From Candidatus Ratteibacteria bacterium (GTDB taxonomy: Bacteria > Ratteibacteria > UBA8468 > MWAK01), in the NCBI GenBank assembly GCA_041653615.1, contig JBAZEZ010000005.1, forward strand, positions 23,289-87,288: a stretch of 64,000 nt of DNA, read 5' to 3'. Of the stretch, positions 17,696-45,638 are shown one piece after another. Below the pieces are notes generated by a model. That model ran no database searches and had not been told where the DNA came from. It saw nothing but the letters and a program-made list of their open reading frames with translations. The translations under genes were made by a program, and so were the position numbers. The first letter of the stretch is position 1. Each line of letters begins with the position of its first letter.

Positions 17696-18628
<933 letters not shown>

Positions 18629-18641
18629 GTGACCCCCTTTG

Positions 18642-18743
18642 TTGGACGCAGATTACCGCAGATACAGATTAAAGATTGTTTTAGCGAATTACCAAAAAAT
18701 GCTCTTTTGCATTATCCTGCTGTTTCTGCGTATATCTGCGTCC
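18642..18743. mobile_element. MITE-like element, family A, copy 1 (TIR TTGGACGCAGAT ... ATCTGCGTCC)
   Basis: Terminal inverted repeats are perfect, with shared internal blocks (cgcagata, cagattaaaga, ctgcgtatatctgcgtcc). The other copies are at 21999-22122, 29832-29963 and 45482-45598. Confidence 0.7.
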
Positions 18744-21700
18744 TATTTAATAGATTTTTTCTTCCAGAGAAAATAGATGGCGGGATAGACGATTAATTCC
18801 ATGCCGAAGGAAGTGAATATGCCGCCGACCATCGGCGCGGCGATTCGCTTCAGTACGTCGGCGCCGATTTCATGCGTCTGTGCCCACATGATAGGGAGCA
18901 GTCCGATGAAAAGGACCGAGGCGGTCATTACCTTGGGCCGGACCCGTTTTACCGCGCCGTGGATGATGGCCTCCTTCAGGTCGTTGATTGTTTTCAGGAG
19001 GCCGTTCTTCTTCCGTTCTTCGTAGGAAAGATCCAGGTAGAGCAGCATGAAGATTCCGGTCTCCGCGTCCACGCCCAGCAGGGCGATGATTCCGACCAGG
19101 ACGCCGATGCTCAAGTTGTAATGGAGCAGGTAGAGTATCCAGACGACACCGATGAGGGAAAAGGGAACCGCCAGCAGGACGATGAAGGTCTTGGGAAAAC
19201 TCCGGGTATTGAAATAGAGGAGGAGGAAGATGATGAGGAGCGTCAGAGGCACGACCACCTTCATCCGTTCCTTCACCCGCTGCATCGACTCGTATTGGCC
19301 GCTGAAAACCAGGTTATAGCCGGCCGGGAGTTTCAGGTTATCGTTTAATTCTTTTTTGGCGTCGGCGACGTAACTGCCGATGTCCCGGTTGGCCACATCG
19401 ATGTAGACGTATCCGGCCAGCGACCCGTTTTCATCCCGAATCATGGACGGACCCGAACTTAATTCTACGTCGGCAATCTGTCCGACGGGGATTTGGCTTC
19501 CGGACGGCGTGGGGATGTAGGTCTTTTTTATCTTTTCGACGTCGTCCCTCAATTCCCGCGGGTAGCGGACGTTTATCGGCAGCCGCACCCGGCCTTCTAC
19601 GGTCTGGCTGATGTTTTCGCCGCCGATGGCGGACATCAGCGTTGTCTGAACGTCTTCTACGGTTAGTCCGTAGCGGGCAATCTCTTCTCTTTTGAGCGTA
19701 AAGTCCACAAAATAACCGCCGCCGGTCCTTTCCGCGTAGATGCTGCGGGTTCCCGGCACTCCTTTGAGCAGGGCTTCAATTTGCAGGCCGATTTCTTCGA
19801 CTCTTTTTAAATCATCTCCTTGGATTTTTATCCCGACCGGGGTGCGGATTCCGGTAGTCAGCATATCAATCCGGGCCTTGATGGGCATCGTCCAGGCGTT
19901 GACCTGGCCGGGGATTTGTAATTTCTGGTCCATTTCCTGAATCATTTCGTCCCAGGAAATTTTGTCCGGCCAGAGCAGCCGCAGGGAAGGCTGAAGAAAT
20001 TCCGGGACGCGGTTGGAATACCACCTGGGTTTGGAGCGCCACTGGTTCTGGGGTTTAAGTAAAACGGTTGTTTCCATCATGGAGTAGGGCGCCGGGTCGG
20101 TAGAGGTGGCGGCCCGGCCTGCTTTGCCGAAGACGCTGGTAACTTCCGGAAACGACTTAAGAATCTTATCCTGAACACCCAGCAGTTTGGTTGCCTCTGT
20201 CACCGAAATGCCGGGCGGAGTGGTTGGCATATATAAGATGCTGCCCTCATTGAGCGGAGGCATAAATTCCGTGCCCAGTTTGAAGAAGAACGGCATGGAA
20301 ACCAGAAAGAGAAGCACGGTCGAGAAGATGACAAGGCGCGGTTTACGCAGGACAAAATGGACAACTGGTTCGTACCATTTGAACAGGGCCCGGCTGACCG
20401 GGTGTTTTTCTTCGGAGTGAATCCGGCCCACCAGGAGGTGGTTGACTATCCCGCAGAGCCATTTCGGTTTGAATTCGTAAAAGTCGAGTTTGGTAAAGAG
20501 GAGCCGGATGGCCGGGTCAAGCGTAATGGCCAGAACCGCCGCAAAGAAGAGCGCGAAATTTTTGGTGAAGGCCAGTGGTTTGAAAAGACGACCTTCAATT
20601 CCTTCCAGGGTGAAGATAGGCATAAAGGCGACCGCGATGACCAGCAGGGAGAAGAAAGAAGCCTGGCCCACTTCTTTAATGGCGCTGATTAAGACTTCCC
20701 GGTAATCTCCCTGTCTGCCTCCCTCTTCCCAGTGAGAAAGTTTTTTGTGGGAGTTTTCCACCACCACAATGGCCGCGTCCACCATGGCGCCGATGGCGAT
20801 GGCGATGCCGCCCAGGCTCATTATGTTGGCGGTCAGTTTCATGTAGTACATCGGGATGAAAGCGATTAAGACCGCGATGGGCAGCGTGATGATGGGGATG
20901 ATTGCGGAAGGGAAATGGAGCAGGAAGAGGAGGATGATTAAACTTACCACAATCATTTCCTCGCGGAGTTTGCTTTTCAGAGTGTTGATGGCGCGATGGA
21001 TTATCTCGGAGCGGTCGTAGGTGATTACCAGTTTTACGCCTTCGGGGAGTTGGATTGTCTTCAATTGTTCTTTGACCCGGTTGATGACCTCCAGGGCGTT
21101 TTCCTGATACCTGATTATGACAATGCCGCCGACTACTTCGCCCCGGCCGTTCAATTCCGCCACGCCCCGTCTGATGTCCGGCCCGAATTGGACTGTGGCG
21201 ACGTTACTGATTCGTACCGGTACGCCGTTTTGGTCGGTTTTAAGGACGATATCCTCTATGTCTTTCAGCGATTTGAGGTAGCCCCTGATGGTTACCATGT
21301 ATTCCCGGCCGGAGATTTCCAGGAGCCGGGCGCCGGCTTCCTGGTTGGATTTTTGCAGGGCCATAACCACGTCATTGAGCGGGAGGTTGTAAGCGAGCAG
21401 GGCGTTGGGGTCAATGGTCACCTGATACTGTTTGGTGAAGCCGCCGACCGAGGCAACTTCCGAAACTCCCTTGACCGATTGCAGGGCGTACTTCAGGCGC
21501 CAGTTCTGGAAGGTGGTCAAATCTTCCAGGGAATTTTTGCCGGTATCGTCGACCAGAGCGTATTCAAAGACCCACCCCAGCCCGGTGGCGTCAGGACCGA
21601 TTTCCGTCTGAACCCCGGGCGGCAGTTGGGATGTTACCTTGGAGAGGTATTCTGTTACCCTGGAGCGGGCCCAGTAGATGTCGGTTCCGTCTTCAAAAAC

Positions 21701-21991
21701 CACGTAGACGTAGGAGAACCCGTAATCGGAGAAACCGCGGATGTCTTTGACTTTCGGCGCGCCCAGGAGGGCGGTTGTAATCGGGTAGGTAACCTGGTCT
21801 TCGATAACCTGGGGCGGCCGGTCCCAGCGGGAAAAGATGATAACCTGGGTGTCGGAAAGGTCGGGAACCGCGTCCAGCGGCAGGTTCTTCAGGGCCAGGG
21901 CGCCGGCGATGGCGGCGGCAGCAACCAGGATTAAGACTATAAATTTGTTCCGGGCGCTGTAATCGATTATCTTTTCAATCCAGCCATCCAT
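18743..21991 (-). CDS. cusA: heavy-metal efflux RND transporter (CusA/CzcA family)
   Basis: The 1082-aa protein has 12 TM helices and two large loops. AIGAMVDAAIVVVEN is an HME-RND motif. It is genetically linked to an adaptor, an OMP, copA and csoR. Confidence 0.8.
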   Translation of the reverse strand: MDGWIEKIIDYSARNKFIVLILVAAAAIAGALALKNLPLDAVPDLSDTQVIIFSRWDRPPQVIEDQVTYPITTALLGAPKVKDIRGFSDYGFSYVYVVFEDGTDIYWARSRVTEYLSKVTSQLPPGVQTEIGPDATGLGWVFEYALVDDTGKNSLEDLTTFQNWRLKYALQSVKGVSEVASVGGFTKQYQVTIDPNALLAYNLPLNDVVMALQKSNQEAGARLLEISGREYMVTIRGYLKSLKDIEDIVLKTDQNGVPVRISNVATVQFGPDIRRGVAELNGRGEVVGGIVIIRYQENALEVINRVKEQLKTIQLPEGVKLVITYDRSEIIHRAINTLKSKLREEMIVVSLIILLFLLHFPSAIIPIITLPIAVLIAFIPMYYMKLTANIMSLGGIAIAIGAMVDAAIVVVENSHKKLSHWEEGGRQGDYREVLISAIKEVGQASFFSLLVIAVAFMPIFTLEGIEGRLFKPLAFTKNFALFFAAVLAITLDPAIRLLFTKLDFYEFKPKWLCGIVNHLLVGRIHSEEKHPVSRALFKWYEPVVHFVLRKPRLVIFSTVLLFLVSMPFFFKLGTEFMPPLNEGSILYMPTTPPGISVTEATKLLGVQDKILKSFPEVTSVFGKAGRAATSTDPAPYSMMETTVLLKPQNQWRSKPRWYSNRVPEFLQPSLRLLWPDKISWDEMIQEMDQKLQIPGQVNAWTMPIKARIDMLTTGIRTPVGIKIQGDDLKRVEEIGLQIEALLKGVPGTRSIYAERTGGGYFVDFTLKREEIARYGLTVEDVQTTLMSAIGGENISQTVEGRVRLPINVRYPRELRDDVEKIKKTYIPTPSGSQIPVGQIADVELSSGPSMIRDENGSLAGYVYIDVANRDIGSYVADAKKELNDNLKLPAGYNLVFSGQYESMQRVKERMKVVVPLTLLIIFLLLYFNTRSFPKTFIVLLAVPFSLIGVVWILYLLHYNLSIGVLVGIIALLGVDAETGIFMLLYLDLSYEERKKNGLLKTINDLKEAIIHGAVKRVRPKVMTASVLFIGLLPIMWAQTHEIGADVLKRIAAPMVGGIFTSFGMELIVYPAIYFLWKKKSIK

Positions 21992-22128: not shown

Positions 22129-23157
22129 TTATTGGTTTACCGCTGATTTAAGCCGGCTTTCCGAATCAACGAAGAAATTACCGGAGGAGACAACCGCGTC
22201 GCCTTCTTTTAAACCGGAGAGTACTTCGTAATAACCTTCGGCCTTATTGCCCAGGGTCACGTCTCGGGATTGGAAATAGCCGTCCGGGGTAGCCAGAAAT
22301 ACTACGTTGCGTTCACCGGTATTCACCACCGCTTCTTCCGGAACCGCCAGCTTTTTGCCCAGGGAGATTTTTACCCGGGCGTTGACGAACATGCCCGGTT
22401 TCAATTTGCCGCCCGGATTTCCAATTTCCGTACGGGCCTGGACGCTTCTGGTCGCTGGGTCAAGTACCGGACTGACGGCGGCAATCTTTCCGGCAAAGAC
22501 TTCGCCGGGAAAGGCGGTCGCGGTTATTTCCACCGGCAGGCCGTTTTTAACCAGGCCCATATCGTATTCATAAACGGAGAGATAGGCCCAGATTGTTTTC
22601 TGACCTTCCGCCAGGTAGAGGTTGCTCTGCGGTTTTCGTTCCCAGACCAGTTTTCGAACCTGGTTTTTATCCATGCCCATCAACAAGAGTTTTTGCTTGG
22701 CGGCATCAGTAAGGGCAACCGCTTCTTTTTTTGCTTCGGACTCGGAATCGGCGCCGGATGTTTCTTCCATCTTTAGCGCCTGCAGAAATTCTTCCTGGGC
22801 TATGTACAGGTCGGGGTCGTAGGCGATTTTGCCCACCGTGCGGATTTCACGCGTCAAGTCCTGTTTCTTTACCTCGGTGGTCTTGATTCCAACCAGCTGT
22901 TGTTTCTCCGGGCTGATTTGCATCCCTTCCGGCGCTGTTGGTTTCGCTTCTTCCTCGTACACCGGAAGATAGTCCATACCCATCTCGTCCTTTTTGAAGA
23001 CCGGCGAAGTAATTTCGAGGTTCATCGGGTTGCGGTAGAAAAGAATCTTCCGGTCTTTTTCCGGCGGTTGTTTTCGGGAGTGGGGAATAATTCCGATCGC
23101 GGCAATCAAGACCAGTAAGATAACAAGGACGCTGATTATTATATTTTTCTTTTTCAT
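22129..23157 (-). CDS. efflux RND periplasmic adaptor (CusB-like membrane fusion protein)
   Basis: An N-terminal TM/signal is followed by a beta-barrel/lipoyl-like pattern. It sits between the OMP and the HME-RND pump. Confidence 0.75.
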   Translation of the reverse strand: MKKKNIIISVLVILLVLIAAIGIIPHSRKQPPEKDRKILFYRNPMNLEITSPVFKKDEMGMDYLPVYEEEAKPTAPEGMQISPEKQQLVGIKTTEVKKQDLTREIRTVGKIAYDPDLYIAQEEFLQALKMEETSGADSESEAKKEAVALTDAAKQKLLLMGMDKNQVRKLVWERKPQSNLYLAEGQKTIWAYLSVYEYDMGLVKNGLPVEITATAFPGEVFAGKIAAVSPVLDPATRSVQARTEIGNPGGKLKPGMFVNARVKISLGKKLAVPEEAVVNTGERNVVFLATPDGYFQSRDVTLGNKAEGYYEVLSGLKEGDAVVSSGNFFVDSESRLKSAVNQ

Positions 23158-23257: not shown

Positions 23258-24580
23258 TTAAAACAACATTTCTTTTTCCGGTGAGACACCGGCGATAGAG
23301 AGGGATATTTCGTTTAAGGTTATTTCTCTTAATCCTTGCGCCGAAAGGTAATTAACGGAAAAGTCAAGAAAAGTCCGTTCCGCGTTCAATAAGTCGGCCA
23401 GATTGGTCTTTCCCGTTTGATACCCGGATTGAGCTATTTGGGTGGCCGCTCGGCTTTTTGGCAGGAGGTTTTCCCGGTAGAGTTTCACTTCCCGGTCTGC
23501 CTGTCTCCAGCGGAAGAGCCCGTCGGCCAGCCCTGCGGCTAAATCCAGTTCCTCGGCCGAAAAGGCCGCTTCCGTCATCTTTACGGTGCTCTTGGAAGCG
23601 GCAATCTGGCTGGCGGCTTTTCCCGGCCAGGGAATTGATATTGACAGCAAGGGCCTGGTGAGAGCCATTCCGGAAAAGAGGCCCTGCATCAAACCGATAT
23701 TAAAATCAGGCCATTGCTCCTTGTATGCCAACTTAACATAAACTTCACTCTGTTCTATCTCGTTTCGCAGGAGAGCCAGGCGGGGGTTTTTGGCCTGGAC
23801 GGATTCCCAGATATTTTTTTCCGAAAAACCTGCTTCGGTGAAGGGCAGGGCGGCTGGCGGTTTTGGAATCCGGTCAGATTGGAGTATGCCTAAAGCGGCG
23901 CCGAATTGGGCAATCAACACTTTTTCGGAATCTTTAAAGTTCGCCAGCATATTGGCCAGCTTCTCTTTTTCAATCTGGATTGTAATCGGGTCAAGCAGGG
24001 ATGACTCGTTGGTCTTTACCCTGGCTAAACTCACGTTTTCCTGTGCTTGAAGAAGTTTTAATATATCTTCCGTGAGTGTAATCTTTTCTTCCAGGACCCA
24101 GAACTGATAGGAAATTTCTTTTACCCGGAAAGCGGTTTGAAAGACCGCTGCTTCAAAAAGATGACTATTTTTGCCGGCTTCCAGGGAAGCCGCTTCGCCG
24201 GAAAGGGAAAGCTTGCCGGGCGCCGGTATCGTAAACATGATGCCGGGCATCAAAGAATCTATGACGCTGTTAAAATCCAAAAGTGAAAGCTGGGGATTGG
24301 CCGGGTACTTGGAGGCGTTAATCGCCTCCACCGCGTTTTTCCACTGGTAGAAAGCCTCTTCCACTCTGGGGTTGTTGAGGACCGCGTACTTAACAAAATC
24401 TTTGAGTTCCGAATCGGCGGTCAAGACCGGCAATTGGGGTCTGGCGTCTTTCGGCCGGTACTGTTTTTCAACCCGGGCAATCTTTTCTCTTTCGGCTTTC
24501 TCAACTTTGGTGGCCGGACCGGCGCAACCGGAGATTACTAAAAGAAGCGAGACGCAAATTAGTAAAAGTCTGGTCTTCAT
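23258..24580 (-). CDS. TolC-family outer-membrane efflux lipoprotein (CusC-like)
   Basis: The lipobox LLVISGCAG and two repeat halves with coiled coils are characteristic of OEP family proteins. Confidence 0.8.
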   Translation of the reverse strand: MKTRLLLICVSLLLVISGCAGPATKVEKAEREKIARVEKQYRPKDARPQLPVLTADSELKDFVKYAVLNNPRVEEAFYQWKNAVEAINASKYPANPQLSLLDFNSVIDSLMPGIMFTIPAPGKLSLSGEAASLEAGKNSHLFEAAVFQTAFRVKEISYQFWVLEEKITLTEDILKLLQAQENVSLARVKTNESSLLDPITIQIEKEKLANMLANFKDSEKVLIAQFGAALGILQSDRIPKPPAALPFTEAGFSEKNIWESVQAKNPRLALLRNEIEQSEVYVKLAYKEQWPDFNIGLMQGLFSGMALTRPLLSISIPWPGKAASQIAASKSTVKMTEAAFSAEELDLAAGLADGLFRWRQADREVKLYRENLLPKSRAATQIAQSGYQTGKTNLADLLNAERTFLDFSVNYLSAQGLREITLNEISLSIAGVSPEKEMLF

Positions 24581-24581
24581 C

Positions 24582-25070
24582 CTATTCCACGATTAATTTG
24601 CCGGTCATTCCGGAATGACCGAAGCCGCAAAAGACGGAGCAACGGAAGACAAAAGTTCCTTTTTTGTCGGCCAGAAACTCTATCTTTTTTGTTTCACCTT
24701 TATTGACCGGAACGTTTATGCCGTATTCCTTGATCGTCAGGCCGTGAGCAACGTCTTCCGAGGTGAAGTTTATCCTCACGATGTCGTTCTGTTTTACCCT
24801 TATTTCCGCCGGAACAAACGCGTATTTTTTGGCGACTACGTTAAATTCTTTTATCCGGCTGAGATATTTTTCCGGGTTCTTCTTAAAGTCGCTGATGCAC
24901 GCCGCGCAGCAGAAATAGTAGGTTTTCCCCTTATATTGATAGGAGACAGACGGGGATGCCTTTCCGCCCAGTACCGGGCAGATACCCGGATTTTCCACGG
25001 CTGAAGCAAGCGGAAGCAGAAGACCGAAAACCAACATTAGCAACAAACTACCCTTCAGAATTCTCTTCAT
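24582..25070 (-). CDS. secreted YHS/TRASH-domain + cupredoxin-like protein with CuA-type motif (paralog 1)
   Basis: A signal peptide is followed by YYFCCAACISDFKKNPEKY (YHS/TRASH) and a C-terminal FRCSVFCGFGHSGMTG (C-x3-C-x3-H-x2-M, the CuA pattern). The start is set at MKRILKG, preceded by GAGGGAG. Confidence 0.6.
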   Translation of the reverse strand: MKRILKGSLLLMLVFGLLLPLASAVENPGICPVLGGKASPSVSYQYKGKTYYFCCAACISDFKKNPEKYLSRIKEFNVVAKKYAFVPAEIRVKQNDIVRINFTSEDVAHGLTIKEYGINVPVNKGETKKIEFLADKKGTFVFRCSVFCGFGHSGMTGKLIVE

Positions 25071-25085
25071 CTTATTCTCCCTCGG

Positions 25086-25150
25086 CCGCCATAGCATGGA
25101 TGCCGGTGCGGCAAAGCCGCTTTGTTTAAGGCGTCCGTAGTGTGAAGGTG
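25086..25150 (-). promoter_or_regulatory. conserved structured 5'-leader motif (copy B) upstream of the cupredoxin paralog-1 SD
   Basis: The mRNA sense reads ACCUUCACACUACGGACGCC-uuaaacaAAGCGGCUUUGCCGCac-cGGCAUCCAUGCUAUGGCGGCCGAGGGAG-AUG. Confidence 0.5.
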
Positions 25151-25183
25151 ACCGCGTTAAGTTTACAAAGTCTGGTCTTCATC

Positions 25184-25636
25184 CTATTCCACGATTAATT
25201 TGCCCTGCATTTTAAAATGGCCCATACCGCAGAAGACCGAACAGCGGAAGACAAAGGTTCCCGTCTTGTCAGCCAGAAACTCCACCTGTTTTGTCTCTCC
25301 CTTTTTGGCCGATATGTTTATGTTATATTCTTTAATCATGAAGCCGTGGGTAGCGTCTTTGGGAGCAAGGATTATCCTTACGGTGTCACCCTGCTTAACC
25401 CTTATTTCCGCCGGGTTGAACTCATATTTCTTGGCAATTACTGTGAACTCCTTTATCTGGCTTGGGGCTTTTACCGTTGAGCTATTACCTGTTTGTGCGC
25501 TAATATCGCCAGGGCCTTTTATGCTCTTAACGGCCGCCGATGCAAAAGAAACCGAAAGACCAAGAAACAATACCACCAGCCACCAACTTTTCCTCAAAGT
25601 AACCATACGTCCTCCTTTTGTGATAACTTTTTTCAT
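25184..25636 (-). CDS. secreted cupredoxin-like protein with CuA-type motif (paralog 2, no YHS domain)
   Basis: The C-terminal FRCSVFCGMGHFKMQGKLIVE is nearly identical to paralog 1, and the 3' flank is duplicated. Confidence 0.55.
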   Translation of the reverse strand: MKKVITKGGRMVTLRKSWWLVVLFLGLSVSFASAAVKSIKGPGDISAQTGNSSTVKAPSQIKEFTVIAKKYEFNPAEIRVKQGDTVRIILAPKDATHGFMIKEYNINISAKKGETKQVEFLADKTGTFVFRCSVFCGMGHFKMQGKLIVE

Positions 25637-25639
25637 TTC

Positions 25640-25918
25640 TCAACCGGTGAATTTTTTATAGATTTCCATTAGTTCTTCGACCTTATCTTTGACCTTCCGG
25701 CTGTTCCGGGAGACCATCGCCTGCCGCACGCAGGTGTTGATATGGTTTTCCAGGACGAGCAGGCCGGCAGCCTTCAGGGCTCCGGCGACCGCGGAAATCT
25801 GCTGCAGGATATCAACGCAGTATTCGCCATTTTCTACCATACGGCTGATGCCCTTGATTTGGCCTTCAATCTTTTTGAGCCGCGGCTGCAGTTTTTTCAT
25901 TTCCCGTTCGGTAATCAT
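25640..25918 (-). CDS. csoR: CsoR/RcnR-family metal-sensing transcriptional repressor (copper-sensitive operon repressor)
   Basis: The 92-aa all-helical protein contains LKKIEGQIKGISRMVENGEYCVDILQQISAV...HINTC (Cys–His–Cys ligand pattern). It lies upstream of copA. Confidence 0.8.
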   Translation of the reverse strand: MITEREMKKLQPRLKKIEGQIKGISRMVENGEYCVDILQQISAVAGALKAAGLLVLENHINTCVRQAMVSRNSRKVKDKVEELMEIYKKFTG

Positions 25919-25984
25919 ACTTGAGTATCCTTATCGTTTTAGTCAGATTATACCCTACCCCAGTATAGTGTGTCAAATGACCGA

Positions 25985-28252
25985 TCAAAGTTTCAAATTG
26001 CGCAGCCGTAAAGAATTGCCGATAACGGAAACCGAACTGAAACTCATGGCTGTTCCGGCAATTATCGGGCTTAAGAGCAAGCCGAAAAACGGGTATAGGA
26101 CTCCGGCGGCGACCGGAATGCCGATGGCGTTATAAATAAAGGCAAAGAACAGGTTTTGCCTGATGTTTTTCATGACGCTCCGGCTTAAGCGCAAAGTTTT
26201 AACGATTCCGCCCAAGTCTCCCTTGACCAGCGTTATGCCGGCGCTTTCAATGGCCACGTCGGTTCCGGTGCCCATGGCTACGCCTACCTCGGCTTGGGCT
26301 AAAGCGGGCGCATCGTTAATGCCGTCACCGGCCATCATCACGACGGCTCCGTCCTGCTGGAATTTTCGCACTATTTCCCGCTTGTCTTTTGGTTCCAGTT
26401 CCGCCTGAAAACCATCAAGGTTCAATTGTTTGGCAATCACCCCGGCTGTTTTATGGTTATCGCCGGTTAGCATGATGATTTTTAACCCCATTTTATGGAG
26501 CGCTTCTATCGCAGCGGGCGTGGTTTTTTTAATTGGGTCTGAAATTCCCAGAATTCCGGCTATTTTGCCTCCAATCCCAACCCAAACAATGGTTTGGGCT
26601 TGATTTCGCAAAACGGCAGCCTGGTCGCTCAACTCTTCGGGGATGTTTATTTTCATTTCTTCGATAAATTTTTGTTTACCGACGATAACGGATTTACCGT
26701 TGACATTTCCTTTTATTCCCTGGCCGATGATTGATTTAAAATCGGACGCGGAAAGAATTTTCGCGTCGCGTTCGCGCGCAAAATCAACAATGGCCCGTGC
26801 CAAAGGGTGCTCGCTGCCCTGTTCCAGGGAAGCGGCCAGGCTTAAAAATTCCTGCCTGTCCCAACCCGGAGCCGGAACGGCGGCCGTTACGTAGGGCTTT
26901 CCTTCGGTCAGCGTGCCGGTTTTGTCGATTAGAAGGTGGGTGATTTTTTCCGATTTTTCAATTGTTTCCGCGTTTTTAATTAAAATGCCCGTCTGGGCGC
27001 CCCGGCCCACCCCGACCATGATTGACATGGGTGTGGCCAATCCAAGGGCGCAGGGACAGGCGATAATCAGAACGGCAATGGCGTTGACAAAAGCATAGGC
27101 CAGTTTTGGGTTCGGTCCCCAATGAAACCAAATTATGAAAGCGAATACGGAAATTGTGATGACAGCCGGGACAAAATAACCGGAGACCCGGTCGGCCAGT
27201 TTTTGAATCGGCGCGCGGCTTCGCTGGGCTTCCGAAACCATGCGGACAATCTGCGACAGCAATGTTTCGGAGCCGATTTTTTCGGCGCGCATTAAGAATG
27301 TTCCGGTCTGGTTGACGGTCGCGCCCACAACCTTGTCTCCGATATTTTTTACAACCGGGATGGGCTCGCCGGTAATCATCGATTCATCTACGGCGCTTTG
27401 CCCTTCAACTATCGCGCCGTCCAGCGGAATTTTCTCTCCGGGGCGCACCCGGAGAATATCTCCCCGTTGAATGGTATCGATGGGAACATCCTCTTCGACA
27501 CCAGCGCGGATACGGTGGGCATTTTTTGCCGCCAGGCCCAGCAGCGCTTTAACGGCCCGGCCGGTCCGGCTGCGGGCTTTCGCTTCCAACAGCTGTCCCA
27601 GGACAACCAGAACCGTAATGGCCGCGGCCGCTTCAAAGTAAAGGTCGATATTTCCCATCTTTTTAAGCGAATCCGGAAAGAGCCGCGGTAGTAAAAGAGC
27701 GATTGTGCTATAGCCGTAGGAGGCCCCTACGCCCAGGGCAATCAAAGTAAACATATTTAAACTTCTATTTACAATAGATTTCCACGCCCGGACAAATAAA
27801 AAACCGCCGGACCAAAATACGACCGGGGTGACCAGCAGAAATTGAATCCAGGCAGAGACCGGGTAGAGGATAGCTGATTTTTTTGCTATGGGCGGAAGCA
27901 TATTTCCGGCAGACAGAATGATGATTGGGGTTGCGAAAAGCAGTCCGGTCCAAAATTTGCGGGATAAAAGGCGGAGTTGTTTATCTTCTTCGTTATTTTC
28001 CGGTTCAGGGTTTACCGGCTCCAGATGCATTCCGCATTTCGGGCAATCTCCGGGTTTATCCTGCCTGATTTCCGGATGCATCGGGCAGGTGTAAACAGCT
28101 TTGTCTCCGGCGGTTGATTTTACGGCAGGGGGCTTTGCCAGGAATTTTTGCTTGCAGTGCGGGCTGCAAAAATAATAGGTAAGGCCGTTTTGCGTGAGCG
28201 TAATAGCCCCGGTTTTTTTGACTTCCATACCGCAAATCGGGTCTCTGGGCAT
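25985..28252 (-). CDS. copA: copper-translocating P1B-type ATPase with N-terminal TRASH/YHS and Cys4 metal-binding domains
   Basis: Motifs present are CPC ([13 protein letters not shown]), [17 protein letters not shown], an N-terminal ICGMEV...[12 protein letters not shown], and CPMHPE...CPKCGM. Confidence 0.9.
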
Positions 28253-28260
28253 AGTTCAAC

Positions 28261-28749
28261 TCATTCGACGATTAACCGGCCGGTCATTTCGGATTTTTTC
28301 CCGACATAAACAAGCGGGGAGCGAAATATGAATGTTCCTTTTTTGTCGGCCAGAAATTCTATCTTTTTTTCTTCATTCTGTATGACCGAAACGTTTATGC
28401 CGTACTCTTTTATTATCAGGCTGCGATTAACGTTTTTAGCGATGAAGGTTATCTGTACGATGTCACCCTGCTTCATCTTTATTTCTAACGGAAGAAACGA
28501 ATAAGTTTGGGCAAGTAACGTGATTTTTTTTATCCGGCTGAGGTATTTTTCCGGGTCTTTTTGGAAATTGATGACGCACTCCGGGTTGCAAAAGTAATAT
28601 GTTTCCCCGCCGTATTTACAAGAATTGGACAGGGATGCTTTTTTGCCCAGGACCGGGCAAAGACCCGGATTATCGGCTGCTAAGGCGGCAGACGCCAGAA
28701 GACCAAAAACCAAAACCAACAAAAGGCCACGCTTCCGGATTTTATTCAT
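28261..28749 (-). CDS. YHS-domain + cupredoxin-like paralog 3 with degenerate metal site
   Basis: It has the same architecture (signal peptide, YYFCNPECVINFQKDPEKY) but the C-terminus reads FRSPLVYVGKKSEMTG, so both Cys and the His are lost. Confidence 0.5.
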   Translation of the reverse strand: MNKIRKRGLLLVLVFGLLASAALAADNPGLCPVLGKKASLSNSCKYGGETYYFCNPECVINFQKDPEKYLSRIKKITLLAQTYSFLPLEIKMKQGDIVQITFIAKNVNRSLIIKEYGINVSVIQNEEKKIEFLADKKGTFIFRSPLVYVGKKSEMTGRLIVE

Positions 28750-28766: not shown

Positions 28767-29807
28767 TTAAATCAGTCGGGCAAGTTTTTCCGTTATTGCC
28801 CAGTATGGGTCGGTTTTTGGGTGTTCCAGGTTAAAGGCGTGGTTGCCCGCGGTAATTTTCAGGCCGTCTTCTTGCCCGGTGACTTCGCCGACGATACTGC
28901 TTAAGATGTTGTTTTTCGTAAACGCCGATACCAGCTCTCCGGCTTCTTTGGGGTCCACCACGGCGATGAGCGTGCCCTCGCTGATGGTTGCGAATGGGTC
29001 AATTTGGAAGTGTTCGCAGGTCTTGATGATAACCTCCTGCTTTACGATTAAATCCTGTTCAACCTTTATCCCGTATTTGCCGGCCCGCGCCATTTCATAG
29101 AGGCCTCCCCATATTCCGCACTCGGTGGCATCGTGCATTACCCGCACTCCCGGGAACTCCCGGGCGACGGCGCAGTCGTCCATGACGGACATCTGGAAGA
29201 ATACGTCCTGGGCCTTCTTTTGAAAGTCCGCTCCAAAAGCCGCCTGGAATTTTTCGGGAAAAGAGATGGCCAGCAGCCCGGTTGTTTCAATGGCCGGCCC
29301 CTTGGTTATAATAATCTGGTCGCCAATCTTTACCCGGTGGGGACCGCGCAGTTCCGCTTCGGTTCCCTGGGCGATGGCGGTGGCGCCGCCCACCATCGGA
29401 TAGTTGCAGCCGGCGTAACGGGCGGTGTGGCCGGTGATAATGCTGATGTTGTATTTCTCGGCTTCCCGGTGGACCGATTCCCACATTTCCGTTAACTGCG
29501 CTTCGGTTATTTCCGGCGGAAGATTAAGATCGACGGTAAGGTACCGGGGTTTCAGTCCGGATACGGCGACGTCCGAGCAGATAATGTGAAAAGCAAACCA
29601 GGCCGCCCGGCTGAATCCGTATGCCGGGACGATGAAGAACGGGTCGGTCGAGAACGCGAGGCAGGTATCGCCAATCTTCACCACGCCGTAATCAACGCCG
29701 TGGCGCGGTCCGATGATGACATTTTTATCCTTGGCGCCCAGGCGCGGATAGATAACCCGGTCAAAAAATTCCGGGTGGATTTTCCCGAGTTCCGGCAGTT
29801 TTTCCAT
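28767..29807 (-). CDS. AIR-synthase-related (PurM-like) family protein
   Basis: The PurM-superfamily N-domain pattern DYGVVKIGDTCLAFSTDPF... and a C-domain are present. The specific member was not identified. Confidence 0.45.
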   Translation of the reverse strand: MEKLPELGKIHPEFFDRVIYPRLGAKDKNVIIGPRHGVDYGVVKIGDTCLAFSTDPFFIVPAYGFSRAAWFAFHIICSDVAVSGLKPRYLTVDLNLPPEITEAQLTEMWESVHREAEKYNISIITGHTARYAGCNYPMVGGATAIAQGTEAELRGPHRVKIGDQIIITKGPAIETTGLLAISFPEKFQAAFGADFQKKAQDVFFQMSVMDDCAVAREFPGVRVMHDATECGIWGGLYEMARAGKYGIKVEQDLIVKQEVIIKTCEHFQIDPFATISEGTLIAVVDPKEAGELVSAFTKNNILSSIVGEVTGQEDGLKITAGNHAFNLEHPKTDPYWAITEKLARLI

Positions 29808-29972: not shown

Positions 29973-31298
29973 TTATTTCTGACTTTTGCCCAGGGCCTGG
30001 TCAAGGTCCGCGATGATGTCTTCGGTGTTCTCCAATCCCACCGAGAGCCGGACGTAATCTTCGGTAACGCCGGTGCTGACCTGTTCCGCCGGGGTCAGCT
30101 GTTGGTGCGTGGTGCTGGCCGGATGGATAATCAGGGTTTTGGCGTCGCCGATATTGGCCAGGTGCGATATCAGTTTTACCGATTCAATCAATTTACGACC
30201 TGCTTCCTTGCCGCCTTTAATCCCGAACCCGAGGATACCGCCGAAGCCTTCTTTCAGGAAGGTCTTTGCCCTTTCGTGGTCCGGATGCCCGGGAAGTCCG
30301 GGATAATTTACCCAGGAGACGGCCGGATGTTTTTCCAGCCAGGCCGCGCAGGTTAGGGCGTTGATGGAATGCTGGCGCACCCGCAAGGGCAGGGTTTCAA
30401 TTCCCTGGATAATCTGGAAGGAGTTGAAAGGCGAGATACAGGGGCCGAGGTCCCGGAGGAGATTGACCCGCGCTTTAAGAATGTAAGTCAGGCCCGGCGC
30501 CACCGCTTTATCGTGATTGCCGAAGGCCTGCCAGAAAGAGAGGCCGTGGTAAGACGGGTCCGGCTCGGTCAGTTCTGGAAACTTTCCGTTGGCCCAGTTA
30601 AAGGCGCCGCCGTCCACAATGGCGCCGCCGATGCTGGTTCCGTGTCCGCCCAGGAATTTGGTCAGCGAATAAACGATGATGTCCGCGCCCAGGTCAAAAG
30701 GTTTCAGGAGCGGCGGCGGTGAAACGGTGTTGTCGATTATCAGCGGGATGCCCTGTTTGTGGGCGACGGCCGCGATTGCTGGGTAATCGTCAACGTTATT
30801 TTTAGGGTTGCCGATGGATTCCAGGTAAAGGAGCCGGGTATTTTTGTCGATGGCGGCGGCAAAGTTTTTCGGGTCGGCGGAGTCCACGAACCTTACTTCA
30901 ATTCCAAATCGGGCCAGGGTGTAGTGAAAAAGAGTGTAGGTCCCGCCGTAGAGATAACTGGTGGAGACGATATTCTGGCCGGATTTGGTGATGTTAAGTA
31001 TCGCCAGGGTAATTGCCGCCTGGCCGGAAGCAACCGCCAGGCTGCCGGTACCGTTGTCCAGGGCGGCAAGCCGCTTTTCCAGGACGTCGGTGGTCGGGTT
31101 CTGTATTCGGGTATAAATATTACCGAATTCTTTCAGGGCGAAGAGGTCGGCCGCGTGCGCGGTATTTTTAAAGACATAACTGGTTGTCTGGTATATCGGC
31201 ACCGCCCGCGAACCGGTGGTCGGGTCCGGTTCCTGGCCGGCGTGTAAGGCCAGCGTTTCCACTTTCTGTTTTGTTTTACCCCTTCCGTTTTTTTCCAT
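29973..31298 (-). CDS. metY: O-acetylhomoserine/O-acetylserine sulfhydrylase (PLP-dependent, MetY family), paralog 1
   Basis: [28 protein letters not shown] is a canonical Cys/Met-metabolism PLP-enzyme N-terminus. The PLP Lys region [10 protein letters not shown] is present. Confidence 0.85.
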
Positions 31299-31401: not shown

Positions 31402-32337
31402 CTAATCCGCAAATTCCTGGAAGAGCCAGGTGGAAAGGTATCTTTCGCCGGTGTCAGGAAGTACCGCAACAATCGTCTTCCCTTTAGATTCCTTTCTTTT
31501 GGCGATTTCAAGGGCGGCCCACAACGCCGCTCCGCTGGATATGCCGACGAAGATACCTTCTTCGCGTGCCAGCTTCCTGGCTACTATTCCCGCGTTCTCG
31601 TTGCTTACCTGGATAATCTCATCGATGATTGACCGGTTCAGGACGCCTGGTATGAAACCGGCGCCTATCCCTTGGATTTTGTGCGGGCCGGGTTCGCCGC
31701 CGGAGAGCACCGGCGAATCGACCGGCTCAACGGCGACAATCTTTACCGACGGCCTTCTCTTTTTCAATACCTCTCCCACGCCGGTGACCGTCCCGCCGGT
31801 ACCTACGCCGGAGACAAACACGTCTATGTTTCCATCCGTGTCATTCCAGATTTCTTCGGCGGTCGTCTTCCGGTGGATTTCCGGGTTTGCCGGGTTTTCG
31901 AACTGCTGCAGGACGAAACTGTTGGGTGTCGCGGCCTTAAGTTCTTCGGCCTTCTGAACCGCGCCTTTCATGCCTTTCGCGCCTTCGGTCAGCACCAGTT
32001 CCGCACCGAGAATCTTCAGCAGCTGCCTGCGCTCGATGCTCATGGTGTCCGGCATCGTAAGTATCAGACGGTATCCTTTGGCGGCGGCGACGAAGGCAAG
32101 AGATATGCCGGTGTTGCCGCTGGTCGGTTCGATGATGACTGTGTCCTTTTTAAGCAAGCCCTGTTTTTCGGCTGTTTCAATCAGCGCCACGCCGATTCTG
32201 TCTTTTACGCTGGAGAGCGGGTTGAAAGATTCCAGTTTTACCAGTACCGTGGCGTGTAAACCATTCGTCAACCGGTTGATTTTTACCAGCGGTGTTCTTC
32301 CCACCGTTTTGGTTATGTCCGCGTATATTTTGCTCAT
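31402..32337 (-). CDS. cysK: cysteine synthase, paralog 2
   Basis: [23 protein letters not shown]... is a paralog of 17696-18628. The start is set at the ATG preceded by AAAGGAG; the longer ORF-track N-terminus is rejected. Confidence 0.85.
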
Positions 32338-32350
32338 GTTTTCTCCTTTG

Positions 32351-32424
32351 CCGCGCCGTAGCATGGACGCCTCGGGGCGGCGAAGCCGCCGGGAAACGAG
32401 GCGTCCGCATTGCGAAGGCGGGCT
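32351..32424 (-). promoter_or_regulatory. conserved structured 5'-leader motif (copy C) upstream of the cysK2 SD, flanked by 16-nt direct repeats
   Basis: The mRNA sense reads CCCGCCUUCGCAAUGCGGACGCCUCG-uuucccg-GCGGCUUCGCCGCC-CCGAGGCGUCCAUGCUACGG. The flanks CUAUGGCGCGGCAAAG / CUACGGCGCGGCAAAG are direct repeats. Confidence 0.55.
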
Positions 32425-32467
32425 TTGCCGCGCCATAGTTATTATACATAGGCGGGCTTTTTTGTTT

Positions 32468-34689
<2,222 letters not shown>

Positions 34690-41156: not shown

Positions 41157-42275
41157 ATGGACAGAAACGTTTTGAGAAAAAGAACCGGTCTGCCGGTTTT
41201 CGTTCCTATGCTTATCATTTTGTTTTTTCTTCCCGGGTGTTCCGGCAAGAAAGAAAAAACATTGCCGGTGGCGGAGAAGGTGCCGGTGACCGCGGTGGCA
41301 GCAACGACGAAGGATGTTCCCGTAAAATTGACCGCCATCGGAAACGTCCAGGCCTATTCCACCGTTTCGGTTACCTCGCGGGTTACCGGGCAGCTGCTTA
41401 ACGTATATTTCACCGAAGGTCAGAGTGTTGCCAAAGGGCAGAGACTTTTCCTGGTTGACCCGGAACCAAAAAAGATAACCGTCAGCCGTATGGAAGCGGG
41501 ACTGGCCGGGAACAACGCACAACTTCTTAACGCCCGGGTGGAGGAGCGCCGTTACGCAGAGTTGGTAAAGAAAGGATTTGTCGCCCAGGCGGATTACGAT
41601 AACATCCACACCCAGATGGCTGCGTTGGAGGCAATGGTACAGGGTGCAACCCAGGACTTGGAAAACGCCCGGCTTCAGTTGAGTTACTGCACGATTTACG
41701 CCCCGATATCCGGTCGGACCGGAAACCTGCTGGTACACCAGGGTAATCTGGTGGGCGTGGAACCCCTGGTGGTTATTAACCAGATTCAGCCGGTCCTGGT
41801 TACTTTTTCCATCCCGGAGCAGCGCCTGACTGAAGTCAGGGAATTTATGAAAAGCCATACCTTGAAAGTGGAAGCGGTTTTATCCGGAAGCCAGCCGCGT
41901 TCACTCTTTGGTTCGCTCACTTTTATCAATAATGCGGTCACCGCCAACACTGGTACCGTCGAACTGAAAGCCGTTTTTAATAATAGGGAAAACCTGCTTT
42001 GGCCGGGGCAATTTGTGAGCGTGGTCTTAAGTCTGACCACCCTGAAGAATGTGGTGGTCGTTCCCGCTCCGGCGGTCCAGATGGCCAGCGACGGACAGTT
42101 TATCTTTGTGGTCAAACCGGATTCTTCGGTGGAAAAACGGCTGGTTGAAGCGACGGCGGTTTCGGAGACCGAGATGATTGTGGAAAAAGGAATCAGCCCG
42201 GGAGAAACGGTGGTGACCGACGGACAGCTGCGCCTGATTCCCGGAGCAAAGGTAACGATTAAAGGCCAGAAATAA
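41157..42275 (+). CDS. efflux RND periplasmic adaptor subunit (AcrA-like lipoprotein)
   Basis: The lipobox FFLPGCSG is followed by HlyD/biotinyl-lipoyl-like and beta-barrel patterns. It precedes an RND pump. Confidence 0.8.
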   Translation: MDRNVLRKRTGLPVFVPMLIILFFLPGCSGKKEKTLPVAEKVPVTAVAATTKDVPVKLTAIGNVQAYSTVSVTSRVTGQLLNVYFTEGQSVAKGQRLFLVDPEPKKITVSRMEAGLAGNNAQLLNARVEERRYAELVKKGFVAQADYDNIHTQMAALEAMVQGATQDLENARLQLSYCTIYAPISGRTGNLLVHQGNLVGVEPLVVINQIQPVLVTFSIPEQRLTEVREFMKSHTLKVEAVLSGSQPRSLFGSLTFINNAVTANTGTVELKAVFNNRENLLWPGQFVSVVLSLTTLKNVVVVPAPAVQMASDGQFIFVVKPDSSVEKRLVEATAVSETEMIVEKGISPGETVVTDGQLRLIPGAKVTIKGQK

Positions 42276-42374
42276 TGTAGTGCGACCCTTTAAGGTTTTT
42301 AATGGTGTCATCCTGAGCCTTTTTTGCGAAGGATCTCGTTTTTAACAGCGAGATTCTTCGGCTAACGCCTCAGA

Positions 42375-45300
42375 ATGACAGGCAGAAAAACAATGAGTAT
42401 ATCTGAAATATTTATCCGTCGTCCGGTGGCAACGGTTTTAATCAGCATTGCCATTTTGCTGGCCGGTGTTGTTGGGTTTAAACTCCTTCCGCAGAGTACC
42501 ATGCCCAATATCGACCTTCCCACCATCCAGGTTACCGCTGCTTTGCCGGGCGCCAGCCCGGAAACGATGGCTTCTTCGGTCGCCACTCCGCTGGAAAAAG
42601 AATTTTCCGCCATTTCCGGATTGGACTCCATGAATTCCACCAGTTCTACCGGGATGACCCAGATAACCCTGCAGTTTAATCTCAGCCGTAAAATCGACGC
42701 GGCCGCCCAGGATGTTCAGGCAGCCATATCCATAGCTTCCTATCAACTACCCAGCGATATGCCTGCTCCGCCTTCATACCAGAAGATTAATCCGGCGATT
42801 CAGCCGATTCTGTTTCTGAACGTTACTTCGGAAACGATGCCTCTTTCCAGGGTAAATTATTACGCATCAAAATATATTTCCCAACGTCTTTCCATGGTAG
42901 ACGGTGTCGCGCAGGTTCAGGTCTACGGGGCGCAGAAATACGCGGTCCGGATTCAACTCGACCCGGAGAAACTGGCCGCGCACTCGGTTGGAATGGACGA
43001 GGTCGTAGCCGCTATTAAAGCAGGGAACGTAAATTTGCCCACCGGAGTTTTGAACGGCAGCGCCAGGACTTTTACCGTTGAATCGAACGGACAACTGGAA
43101 AACGCCGACGCCTACCGTAATTTGATTATTGCTTATCGCAACGAATCTCCGCTGCGCCTGGGAGAGGTTGCGCAGGTGATTGACAGCGTGGAGGAGATTA
43201 GGACGGCCGCCTGGTTAAACAATGACCAGCGTGCCCTTGTGCTGGCTATCCAGCGCCAGCCCGGCACCAATACGGTGGCCGTGGTGGACCGGGTCAGAAA
43301 ATTGCTGCCGGAGCTCCAGGCACAACTGCCGGCCTCAATAAAATTAGAAATTTTCTTTGATATGTCCCAATCCATCCGGGAGTCGGTACGCGAGGTTAAA
43401 TTCACCCTGCTTATCACGATGCTCCTGGTGATAATGGTGATATTCCTCTTTTTGCGGAATGTGCCGGCGACCGTCATTCCGGGCGCGGCGCTGGCTATGT
43501 CCATCATCGGCACTTTTGCCGTAATGTATTTTTCCGGTTTCAGCCTGAATATTCTTTCCCTGATGGCCCTGTCTCTCTGTACCGGTTTTGTGGTTGACGA
43601 CGCCATCGTCATGCTGGAAAATATCGTCCGGCACGTGGAGCATAAGGAAGAGCCCTATCAGGCCGCTCTGAACGGGTCGAAGGAGATCGGTTTTACGATT
43701 ATCGCCATGACGCTTTCGCTGGTGGTGGTTTTTGTTCCGGTCCTTTTTATGGGAGGGGTATTAGGGCGCATCTTTAAGGAATTCGCGGTTACCATCAGCG
43801 CGGCAATCCTTATTTCCGGGTTTATCTCCCTGTTTCTTACGCCCATGCTGTGCAGCCGTTTCCTGAGAGTCCACCCGGTCGGTGAGAAGCATAACCGGTT
43901 TTATAATTACTTGGAAAACGGTCTGGCTTGGCTGCGGCTTGGATACGAAAAGAGCCTGCGGAAGGTTATGGAGTACCGGTTGGTCACCATCGTGATTGGT
44001 TTTGTGGTTTTAATTGCCACCGGTTTTCTTTTCGCAAGAATACCCAAAGGTTTTATTCCGAACGAAGACTGGAACGTTCTTCTTACCCAGACCGAAGCTG
44101 TCCAGGGGATATCTTTTGATTCCATGGCTGCTCATCAGCGGGCGGTGGCCGAGGTCATCGGACGTAATTCCAACGTTGAAATGATAATGCACGTGGTCGG
44201 TTTTATGGGTACCGCCAACACCGGCTTTATGTTCGTGCGCTTGAAGCCCAGGGTTGAGCGTACCCTGGACGCGGACGGAGTGATTGAATCGTTGAGAGGG
44301 GAAATCTCCGGAATTCCGGGTATTAAGGTCTTTATGCAGAACCCGCCGGCAATTCCCATCGGCGCCCACGAGATGAAGAGCCCGTATCAATTTACACTGC
44401 AGAGCCCGAATACCGCTGAACTCTACCGTTATACCGAAATACTGGAAGAAAAGATGAAAGGCATAGAAGGGATTCAGGATGTTTCCAGCGACCTTCAGAT
44501 GCAGAACCCGCAGGTTAAAGTGGAGATAGACCGGGATAAGGCTTCGGCGTTGGGTATCTCTTCCTACCAGATTGAAGACCTGCTTTTCAGCGCTTACGGT
44601 TCCCGGAAAGTTTCCACCATCTTTATGCCGGAGGACCAGTATAACGTAATACTGGAATTACAGGACCAGTATCAGCGGGACCCATCGGCGCTGTCAAAAC
44701 TTTACCTGCATTCTAATACCGGCGCTTTAATTCCGTTGAGCGCGGTGGTAAAGACGGGGCAGAGCGTAGGACCGGTATCGATTAACCACCAGGGTCAGCT
44801 TCCGTCGGCAACAATAGCATTTGGTCTGAAACCCGGAATATCTTTGGGAGGTGCCAGCGCCGCGGTAAAGAAAATGGCAATCGAGACCCTGCCGACCAGC
44901 ATCAACGGAAATTTTCAGGGAACAGCCCAGGTTTTTCAGTCTTCCGCCAAGGGTTTTCTCTGGCTTTTCCTGGGGGCAATTTTAATCATTTATATAGTCC
45001 TGGGAATTCTTTACGAAGATTTTATTCATCCGATTACGATTTTAAGCGGGCTTCCGTCCGCCGCGTTCGGCGCGTTGCTGGCTCTTTTAATCTTTAGGAT
45101 GGAACTGAATATTTACGCGATAGTGGGAATTTTGATGCTGATTGGAATCGTGAAGAAGAATGCTATTATGATGATTGATTTTGCGGTTCAGGGGATGAGA
45201 AACGAGGGAAAGAGCGGGAAAGAGGCGATTCTTGACGGCTGTCTGATTCGTTTCCGGCCCATTATTATGACTTCAACCGCTGCTTTCATCGGCTCTTTGC

Positions 45301-45476: not shown

Positions 45477-45481
45477 ATTAT

Positions 45482-45598
45482 TTGGACGCAGATTTTCGCA
45501 GATAACCGCAGATACAGATTAAAGAATTGCTTTAAATAAGTACCTTAAAATTATCGTCTGATCCTTATCCCGTAGTTTCTGAGCTTATCTGCGTCCAA
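45482..45598. mobile_element. MITE-like element, family A, copy 4
   Basis: ttggacgcagattttcgcagataaccgcagatacagattaaagaattg...gagcttatctgcgtccaa. It starts 6 nt after the RND stop codon. Confidence 0.7.
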
Positions 45599-45638
45599 AG
45601 GAAATTCTTAGGTAATTAAATTATTTCAGGAGGTTGTT

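Follow-up and report, generated by a model that had tools for sequence, protein, structure and literature searches.

Cytochrome oxidase subunit II (COX2) and nitrous oxide (N2O) reductase (NosZ) carry the binuclear copper centre CuA in a cupredoxin domain, and one nitric oxide reductase also has a CuA centre. Characterised CuA centres in the literature searched were those of cytochrome oxidase, nitrous oxide reductase, an atypical PmoD dimer, and engineered proteins (PMC6189053). We analysed a 64,000-nucleotide (nt) stretch of a Candidatus Ratteibacteria contig (JBAZEZ010000005.1), called the window throughout, in which a copper locus encodes three small paralogous cupredoxin-fold proteins (para1, para2, and para3) beside the genes for a copper-exporting ATPase (CopA), a Cu(I)-sensing repressor (CsoR), and a tripartite pump (CusCBA). 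The locus probably exports copper under the control of CsoR, in a bacterium that is diderm and probably anaerobic. We favour, with modest confidence, the reading that the cupredoxins are induced through CsoR and act in the periplasm as Cu(I) chaperones or buffers for CopA and CusCBA, in the place of CusF.

The CuA domains of COX2 (Thermus ba3; PDB 2cua, 1ehk, and 7deg) and NosZ have the same fold and ligand class as para1 and para2. Unlike those domains, the paralogues are standalone, predicted secreted proteins of 140-162 aa that have neither transmembrane helices nor a COX1 or NosZ propeller partner. They are encoded in copper-efflux operons, one clade is fused to a YHS/TRASH domain, and one paralogue has no site. 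Judged from their sequences, they are CuA-class cupredoxin domains by descent and by site, placed outside an oxidase or N2O reductase. The nearest precedents are CupA, CopI, and PmoD. The closest in function is CupA of Streptococcus pneumoniae (PDB 4f2e), together with the cupredoxin N-terminal domain of its CopA. CupA has an N-terminal membrane anchor and a cytoplasm-facing domain, whereas the paralogues here have apparent cleavable Sec signals; CupA pairs with a cupredoxin domain on CopA, whereas CopA here has YHS and HMBD domains; and the CupA motif (PMC5552934) differs from the C-x3-C-x3-H-x2-M of para1 and para2. CopI of Rubrivivax gelatinosus (NF051440) is a periplasmic, copper-induced cupredoxin encoded beside copA and important for copper tolerance. 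It is plastocyanin-like and mononuclear, whereas para1 and para2 carry the CuA ligand set, and the NCBIfam CopI model scored 24.2 bits against para2 (cut-off 280). PmoD/AmoD is a small extracytoplasmic cupredoxin with a CuA-like centre outside oxidases and a possible copper-loading role. Its site lies between two monomers, with a non-canonical ligand set, and it has a C-terminal transmembrane helix (PMC6189053), unlike para1 and para2 with their canonical single-domain ligand set. CusF, a small protein of the periplasm encoded inside the Escherichia coli cusCFBA operon, is regarded as the carrier that brings Cu(I) from CopA to CusB; it has an OB fold and a His-Met2-Trp site and is not homologous to the paralogues. 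Pfam gave no CusF_Ec match in the three paralogues and returned only YHS, TRASH, cupredoxin, COX2, and Copper-bind families; by analogy of gene position, the paralogues would be functional equivalents of CusF. PDB entries 4hcf and 4hci are structural-genomics structures of a copper-bound Cupredoxin_1 protein from Bacillus anthracis; it is uncharacterised, and the literature searched gave no function for it. The full-text literature searched contained no paper that characterises a CuA cupredoxin of the canonical, standalone kind at cop or cus loci, in agreement with the initial annotation, which had called such proteins poorly characterised. The accessible part of a 2020 review of bacterial copper chaperones covers CusF, CopI, Sco, PCuAC, Cox11, and CopG/CutF, with no standalone CuA cupredoxin in that part.

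Pfam scans (cut-offs 30.3 bits for YHS and 27 for Cupredoxin_1) placed YHS (42.7), Cupredoxin_1 (43.3), and COX2 (35.7 bits) in para1, all over cut-off, and Cupredoxin_1 (46.0) and COX2 (33.6 bits) in para2, from which YHS was absent. YHS was also matched in para3 (35.2 bits) and CopA (38.9 bits), and each of the three YHS-bearing proteins has a C-x19-22-C-x3-C cysteine triad. The initial annotation had headed all three paralogues as YHS-cupredoxins; this applies to two of the three, as its own body text had it, and the TRASH cysteine motif that it described in para1 is present. The CuA-type motif that it had reported for para1 and para2 was likewise found: the loop sequences it quoted (CSVFCGFGHSGM, CSVFCGMGHFKM, and SPLVYVGKKSEM) were verified as exact, and the alignment placed the upstream CuA histidine in DVAHGL of para1 and DATHGF of para2, with Arg at this position in para3. 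Since the upstream histidine accompanies the C-x3-C-x3-H-x2-M loop, all five side-chain CuA ligands are present in para1 (H109, C144, C148, H152, and M155) and, at equivalent positions, in para2. Across the window, translated in all six frames, the loop motif occurs only twice, once in each of these two proteins. The best PDB sequence matches were CuA domains of ba3-type COX2 (7deg_B and 2cua; E ~1e-11) and the NosZ C-terminus, and the CuA ligands of the paralogues align column for column with both. Matches to the NCBIfam models for CoxB (46.9 bits, cut-off 147.7) and NosZ (48-68 bits, cut-offs 625-700) were partial and restricted to the CuA domains of those models. Apart from the signal peptide, para1 and para2 have no transmembrane helices, and neither COX1 nor a NosZ propeller was found at the locus, nor an additional CuA motif across the window. 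A role of para1 and para2 as COX2 of a hidden oxidase was rejected on the missing helices, the missing COX1, and scores far under the equivalog cut-offs. The N-termini of all three paralogues are rich in Lys/Arg and continue into a hydrophobic core and an A-x-A site (ASA/V, ASA/A, and ALA/A), as expected of cleavable Sec signal peptides of secreted proteins; in para1 the signal peptide, read by eye, comprises aa 1-24.

The cupredoxin fold proposed in the initial annotation was confirmed by an AlphaFold2 model of para1 built from 57 homologues (mean predicted local distance difference test score (pLDDT) 91; ~98 from residue 30 on). In Foldseek comparisons its cupredoxin domain superposed on Thermus CuA domains (6pty_A, 5ndc_B, and 2qpe_B) at 0.9-1.1 Å over 91-92 columns, and on NosZ at 0.9 Å over 95 columns. 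With ligand placement judged from these superposition statistics, the Cys2-His2-Met site of para1 and para2 is predicted to bind copper as a binuclear centre.

An exhaustive search of 1.84 billion representatives, clustered at 50% identity, gave a family of 6,880 proteins at E<=1e-3 and 2,404 at E<=1e-10. The family count leaves out two kinds of distant genome match: several that were full-length NosZ, and many, from the candidate phyla radiation (CPR) and other lineages, that had the mononuclear type-1 motif C-x4-H-x4-M and were not CuA proteins. The exact CuA motif was present in 146 of the 150 best family representatives (median length 172 aa). Nearly every cupredoxin-bearing homologue retains it, and across the 57-sequence alignment each ligand column is either invariant or conserved to at least 90%. 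Of the two observations that the initial annotation had named as refuting, a model with ligands too far apart and a general lack of the motif among homologues, neither was borne out. Related loci (numbered L) were collected by a genome scan with an alignment of 26 closer sequences. The clade that combines YHS and CuA domains (YHS-CuA) comprises members from Omnitrophota, Planctomycetia, Elusimicrobiota, and unbinned metagenomes. A cusCBA, copA, or csoR match lay within ~6 kb in all nine YHS-CuA loci examined (L001, L003-L009, and L083), a neighbour being a tblastn match or a called gene (the weakest a 39-bit csoR in L009), and 20 of 28 YHS-CuA homologues have Met/His-rich linkers before YHS, of a type seen in periplasmic copper-binding proteins. 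Among distant CuA-motif members, one in Moraniibacteriota (L012) lies in a cluster with copA, multicopper oxidase, DUF302, cupredoxin, and ICMT genes, and one in DPANN (L011) adjoins a multicopper oxidase. By gene content the L012 cluster resembles the merR-copA-cupredoxin-DUF2933-ICMT islands of Alteromonas (PMC8478169). Other distant small CuA-motif cupredoxins (P0051, P0068, and P0044 from Acidobacteria, and P0049) showed no association with copper genes. Copper efflux is therefore not the dedicated task of the entire family, and the link to it is a property of the YHS-CuA clade.

All eight genes of the locus were found as open reading frames (ORFs) on the minus strand in the order that the initial annotation had given: para3, copA, csoR, para2, para1, cusC, cusB, and cusA (Table 1; coordinates from a six-frame ORF list of the window). 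The likely start codons of para1 and para2 lie 9-10 codons inside their longest ORFs; the internal Met is also where para1 starts in a database entry of 100% identity. The three paralogues share 54-58% identity, and each adjoins a different module: para3 with copA, para2 with csoR, and para1 with cusC. The para1 stop is separated from the cusC start by 1 nt, and para3 lies 8 nt upstream of copA. Between csoR and para2 the gap is 3 nt by the longest ORF; the annotated para2 Met lies 33 nt past csoR and is preceded by GGAGG. In the ORF list, cusC, cusB, and cusA are spaced too closely for a cusF gene to lie between them.

Table 1. Position of features in the window.
Feature	Position	Strand	Description
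para1	24582-25070	-	162 aa, predicted secreted YHS/TRASH and CuA-type cupredoxin; longest ORF 24582-25097
para1 CuA loop	24606-24641	-	C144, C148, H152, M155
para1 TRASH cysteines	24897-24980	-	C31, C54, C58; C-x19-22-C-x3-C triad
para2	25184-25606	-	140 aa, predicted secreted CuA-type cupredoxin without YHS; longest ORF 25184-25636; second gene from the csoR promoter side
para2 motif CSVFCGMGHFKM	25208-25243	-	C-x3-C-x3-H-x2-M loop
para3	28261-28749	-	Predicted secreted YHS/TRASH and cupredoxin-fold protein; CuA site abolished
para3 former ligand loop	28285-28320	-	CuA site abolished
para3 TRASH cysteine triad	28576-28659	-	Intact
copA	25985-28252	-	P1B-1 Cu(I)-exporting ATPase
CopA YHS	28130-28243	-	Residues 4-41
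CopA cysteine triad	28154-28234		C-x19-22-C-x3-C
CopA HMBD (PF19335)	28013-28096	-	Residues 53-80, CxxC...CxxC element
csoR	25640-25918	-	Cu(I)-sensing repressor
Sigma-70 promoter TTGACA-18-TATAAT	25947-25976	-	12/12 consensus positions, upstream of csoR
Palindrome TATACTGGGGTAGGGTATA	25949-25967	-	Unique; overlaps promoter spacer and -10
38-nt exact repeat, copy A	24565-24602	-	para1/cusC junction
38-nt exact repeat, copy B	25167-25204	-	Downstream of para2
cusC	23258-24580	-	cusC-like outer-membrane factor with lipobox (ISGC)
cusB	22129-23157	-	cusB-like membrane-fusion adaptor
CusB N-terminus (FYRNPMNLEITSPVFKKDEMGMDYLPVY)	~22950-23040		Residues ~40-68; Cys-less, Met-containing
cusA	18743-21991	-	cusA/czcA-family heavy-metal RND pump
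AIR-synthase-related gene	28767-29807		HypE/ThiL/SelD-like
Two cysK-like PALP and two Cys/Met PLP-enzyme genes	17696-18628, 29973-31298, 31402-32436, 32468-33778		Bracket the copper locus
Second tripartite RND system	41157-46916	+	HlyD-type adaptor, AcrB-type pump, OEP

The partner genes matched their proposed identities. In CopA, Pfam found E1-E2 ATPase and HAD domains behind YHS and HMBD and no HMA domain, in keeping with the unusual N-terminus that had been reported for it. CopA also has the motifs CPC, YN-x4-P, and M-x2-SS, which are signatures of Cu(I) pumps among the P1B-ATPases. CsoR matched Trns_repr_metal at 99.5 bits and has the Cu(I)-type ligand triad C34-H59-C63. For the pump of the resistance-nodulation-division (RND) type, the family model CusA/CzcA gave 1087 bits; the adaptor and the outer-membrane factor matched models for CusB/CzcB and OEP, so that the cusA, cusB, and cusC assignments of the initial annotation stood at the level of family models. 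The Cys-less CusB N-terminus looks like a relic of the HMBD motif that is intact in CopA.

The promoter upstream of csoR was the sole sigma-70 promoter in the region with 12/12 consensus positions, and a unique palindrome (TATACTGGGGTAGGGTATA) overlaps it. Type-2 CsoR operators follow the rule 5'-TAC-X9-GTA-3', a dyad flanking G-tracts with TA repeats outside (PMC3902906). The palindrome agrees with this TAC-N9-GTA G-tract form, and fits as a candidate CsoR operator of the copper operon. A terminator between para2 and para1 was considered and rejected, the sole hairpin having its T-run on the wrong strand. A 38-nt exact repeat is present in two copies; it runs from the last 7 codons of the cupredoxin gene through the stop into cusC, of which it takes in the first 16 nt. 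Identity around the copies is 72% upstream and 27% downstream, and an 18-codon remnant of the cusC 5' end (MKTRLCKLNAVTFTLRTP followed by a stop) lies downstream of para2. Two Omnitrophica metagenome-assembled genomes (MAGs) have simpler orders: AIR-synthase-like gene, para3-like gene, YHS-CuA, and cusCBA in L001, and AIR-synthase-like gene, copA, YHS-CuA, and cusCBA in L003. The repeat reads as a recombination scar at the cupredoxin/cusC junction, and together with the cusC stub and the simpler orders it indicates that copA-csoR-para2 was spliced in upstream of para1-cusCBA.

The third paralogue was said to have lost both cysteines and the histidine of the loop while keeping YHS, and the replacements were found to be S, Y, and K. 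With the upstream histidine included, four of the five CuA ligands are gone (H to R, C to S, C to Y, and H to K) and Met is retained. To explain this the initial annotation had offered neofunctionalisation or decay. A decaying, pseudogene-like duplicate without a function of its own would account for the lost ligands and for a Cupredoxin_1 score (19.5 bits) under the Pfam cut-off, but the ORF, the signal peptide, and the TRASH triad are all intact. Four distinct orthologues (73-77% identity) share the derived R, Y, and K residues, and the orthologue in the Omnitrophica MAG of L001 occupies the same syntenic position. The ratio of nonsynonymous to synonymous substitution rates (dN/dS, Nei-Gojobori) between para3 and the Omnitrophica orthologue was 0.26, compared with 0.23 for the intact para1 pair. 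With a pLDDT of 88.7 the para3 model is a confident one; it can still be matched to the folds of CuA domains (2.0-2.5 Å), and the former ligand loop has been remodelled to a plain beta-hairpin. Because para3 belongs to a conserved subfamily at this dN/dS, we do not regard it as decaying; decay is highly improbable, and of the two earlier suggestions the sequence evidence favours the one in which para3 has a retained, changed function. Conserved although it lacks the ligands, para3 provides a natural control with which the contribution of TRASH domain and fold could be told apart from the contribution of the binuclear site.

A mechanism of the following kind would join these components. Cytoplasmic Cu(I) would free CsoR from the TAC-N9-GTA operator overlapping the consensus promoter, and its release would induce csoR and para2 and, probably through read-through, para1-cusCBA. 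CopA would export Cu(I) to the periplasm, where para1 and para2 would take it up at their COX2/NosZ-type binuclear Cys2-His2-Met sites and para1 would additionally use its Cys3 TRASH site. The two proteins would then either retain the copper or deliver it to CusB/CusA, which would expel it across the outer membrane. Translationally linked to copA, para3 would probably work where Cu(I) leaves CopA, either accepting it through the TRASH site alone or serving as a docking partner. Both the direction of copper transfer and the co-transcription of the genes are predictions. We favour Cu(I) carriage or buffering because para1 and para2 have the full CuA ligand set and CuA homology, because the para1 model matches CuA domains so closely, and because the motif is kept throughout the family representatives. 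The tight gene coupling with no space for cusF, the constant company of cusCBA, copA, or csoR at YHS-CuA loci, the Met/His-rich linkers, the L012 member in its copA/multicopper oxidase cluster, and the match of the CsoR box to the published operator lead to the same reading.

Several points weigh against a chaperone or buffer. Canonical CuA is buried, binds copper very tightly, and is known as an electron-transfer centre, properties more in keeping with a sink or with a redox role than with rapid transfer of the metal. The function of the family is read from sequence and models, the ligand geometry is that implied by superposition, signal-peptide cleavage was judged by eye, and distant members (P0051, P0068, P0044, and P0049) occur outside copper loci. 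The copper specificity of the RND pump is suggested by its context, the match reaching the CusA/CzcA family level. In the main rival reading, para1 and para2 are true electron-transfer CuA proteins and not copper carriers. They would, for example, supply CusCBA with exportable Cu(I) by reducing Cu(II) in the periplasm, or exchange electrons with a copper oxidase. Their ligands and fold are indeed those of a dedicated one-electron centre, relatives have multicopper oxidases as neighbours in L011 and L012, and in Myxococcus xanthus (PMC3707914) cuoA is preceded by a Cupredoxin_1 protein. CupA had cupric reductase activity in vitro (PMC7558416), and the many small CuA cupredoxins outside copper loci would fit a generic electron-carrier ancestry. 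However, ORFs and Pfam revealed no oxidase, cytochrome, or other electron partner at the locus, the Cys3 TRASH fusion and the Met/His-rich linkers point to metal handling, and para3 is kept beside copA under purifying selection without any redox site. We therefore rate the redox role as rather unlikely.

Proximity to copA could also mean that the cupredoxins are client cuproproteins of unrelated function, located there because CopA supplies the copper that metallates them, as for CutO. CopA-dependent cuproprotein maturation is documented (PMC8456105), and the wider family of CuA cupredoxins occupies varied genomic contexts. A client would not be expected to occur three times, coupled each time to another export module (copA, csoR, and cusCBA), nor directly downstream of csoR behind a promoter overlapping the CsoR box, where para2 lies. 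The position directly up- or downstream of cusCBA is moreover conserved across phyla, including two loci (L001 and L008) with no copA match in the flanks examined. This makes the client explanation improbable.

Beyond the copper genes, the AIR-synthase-related gene ends 17 nt ahead of para3, and a similar gene lies directly upstream of the copper genes in L001, L002, and L003. Genes for two cysK-like PALP proteins and two Cys/Met pyridoxal phosphate (PLP) enzymes bracket the locus, and the Omnitrophica MAG (L001 1-8756) has the same sulfur-amino-acid neighbourhood with its AIR-synthase-like gene. This bracketing may be plain synteny, or it may tie thiol supply to copper stress. The second RND system, 13 kb off, appears to be of the multidrug and not the metal type.

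The homologue searches yielded further arrangements. In Woesearchaeota (L016 1666-3670 and L017 4715-6658) a small CuA-motif cupredoxin lies between thioredoxin-like (multi-thioredoxin-fold) and DsbD/CcdA-type membrane reductase (DsbD_TM) genes, an arrangement that recalls thiol maintenance of a CuA site. A CuA-motif cupredoxin follows straight after a type III polyketide synthase gene in two Acidobacteria-type contigs (L084 4807-6423 and L087 4591-6079), a conserved pairing with no evident copper link. A thioredoxin-reductase-like flavoprotein with an N-terminal YHS domain is encoded at two YHS-CuA/copA loci: in L006 (4782-5825) it directly adjoins the YHS-CuA gene, and in L083 (1206-2261) it lies ~3.7 kb upstream, past a small YHS protein, a P-II protein, and copA. 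Tandem cupredoxin domains, two or three, occur in P0096, P0097, P0099, P0100, and P0151, with the axial Met replaced in several copies; in P0151 two such domains are fused to a long C-terminal region. Many CPR (Patescibacteria) genomes (L019-L079) encode small membrane-anchored Cupredoxin_1 proteins with the type-1 motif YYCSVGxHRxxGM, which resemble the extra N-terminal domain of three-domain NirK. The tblastn search against plasmids gave mainly NosZ and COX2, and one Ilyobacter polytropus "cupredoxin domain-containing protein" (H8).

Taken more generally, a soluble, secreted, canonical single-domain CuA protein could be a copper trafficking or sequestering device and not an electron carrier, its binuclear Cys2-His2-Met centre holding two Cu(I) and passing them on to an efflux pump of the RND type; the organisms concerned may have no oxidases. 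We put this forward as a possibility that we ourselves doubt. It would concern one clade among the ~2,400 clusters (50% identity, E<=1e-10) of standalone CuA-motif cupredoxins, which are spread over Omnitrophota, DPANN, CPR, Acidobacteriota, and Paenibacillus; the CuA domains of COX2 and NosZ could have been recruited from within this family. The sequences suggest the use of a CuA module in copper detoxification, for which the literature searched has no characterised example. If the role in copper export is true, a classic electron-transfer site has been reused for metal trafficking, and a natural soluble CuA protein of 10-15 kDa would serve bioinorganic chemistry as a convenient model. Such a protein would also close a gap in copper homeostasis for those anaerobic uncultured lineages that have CusCBA and CopA but neither CusF nor the oxygen-dependent CueO, and the finding opens onto a large unstudied family of CuA-motif cupredoxins.

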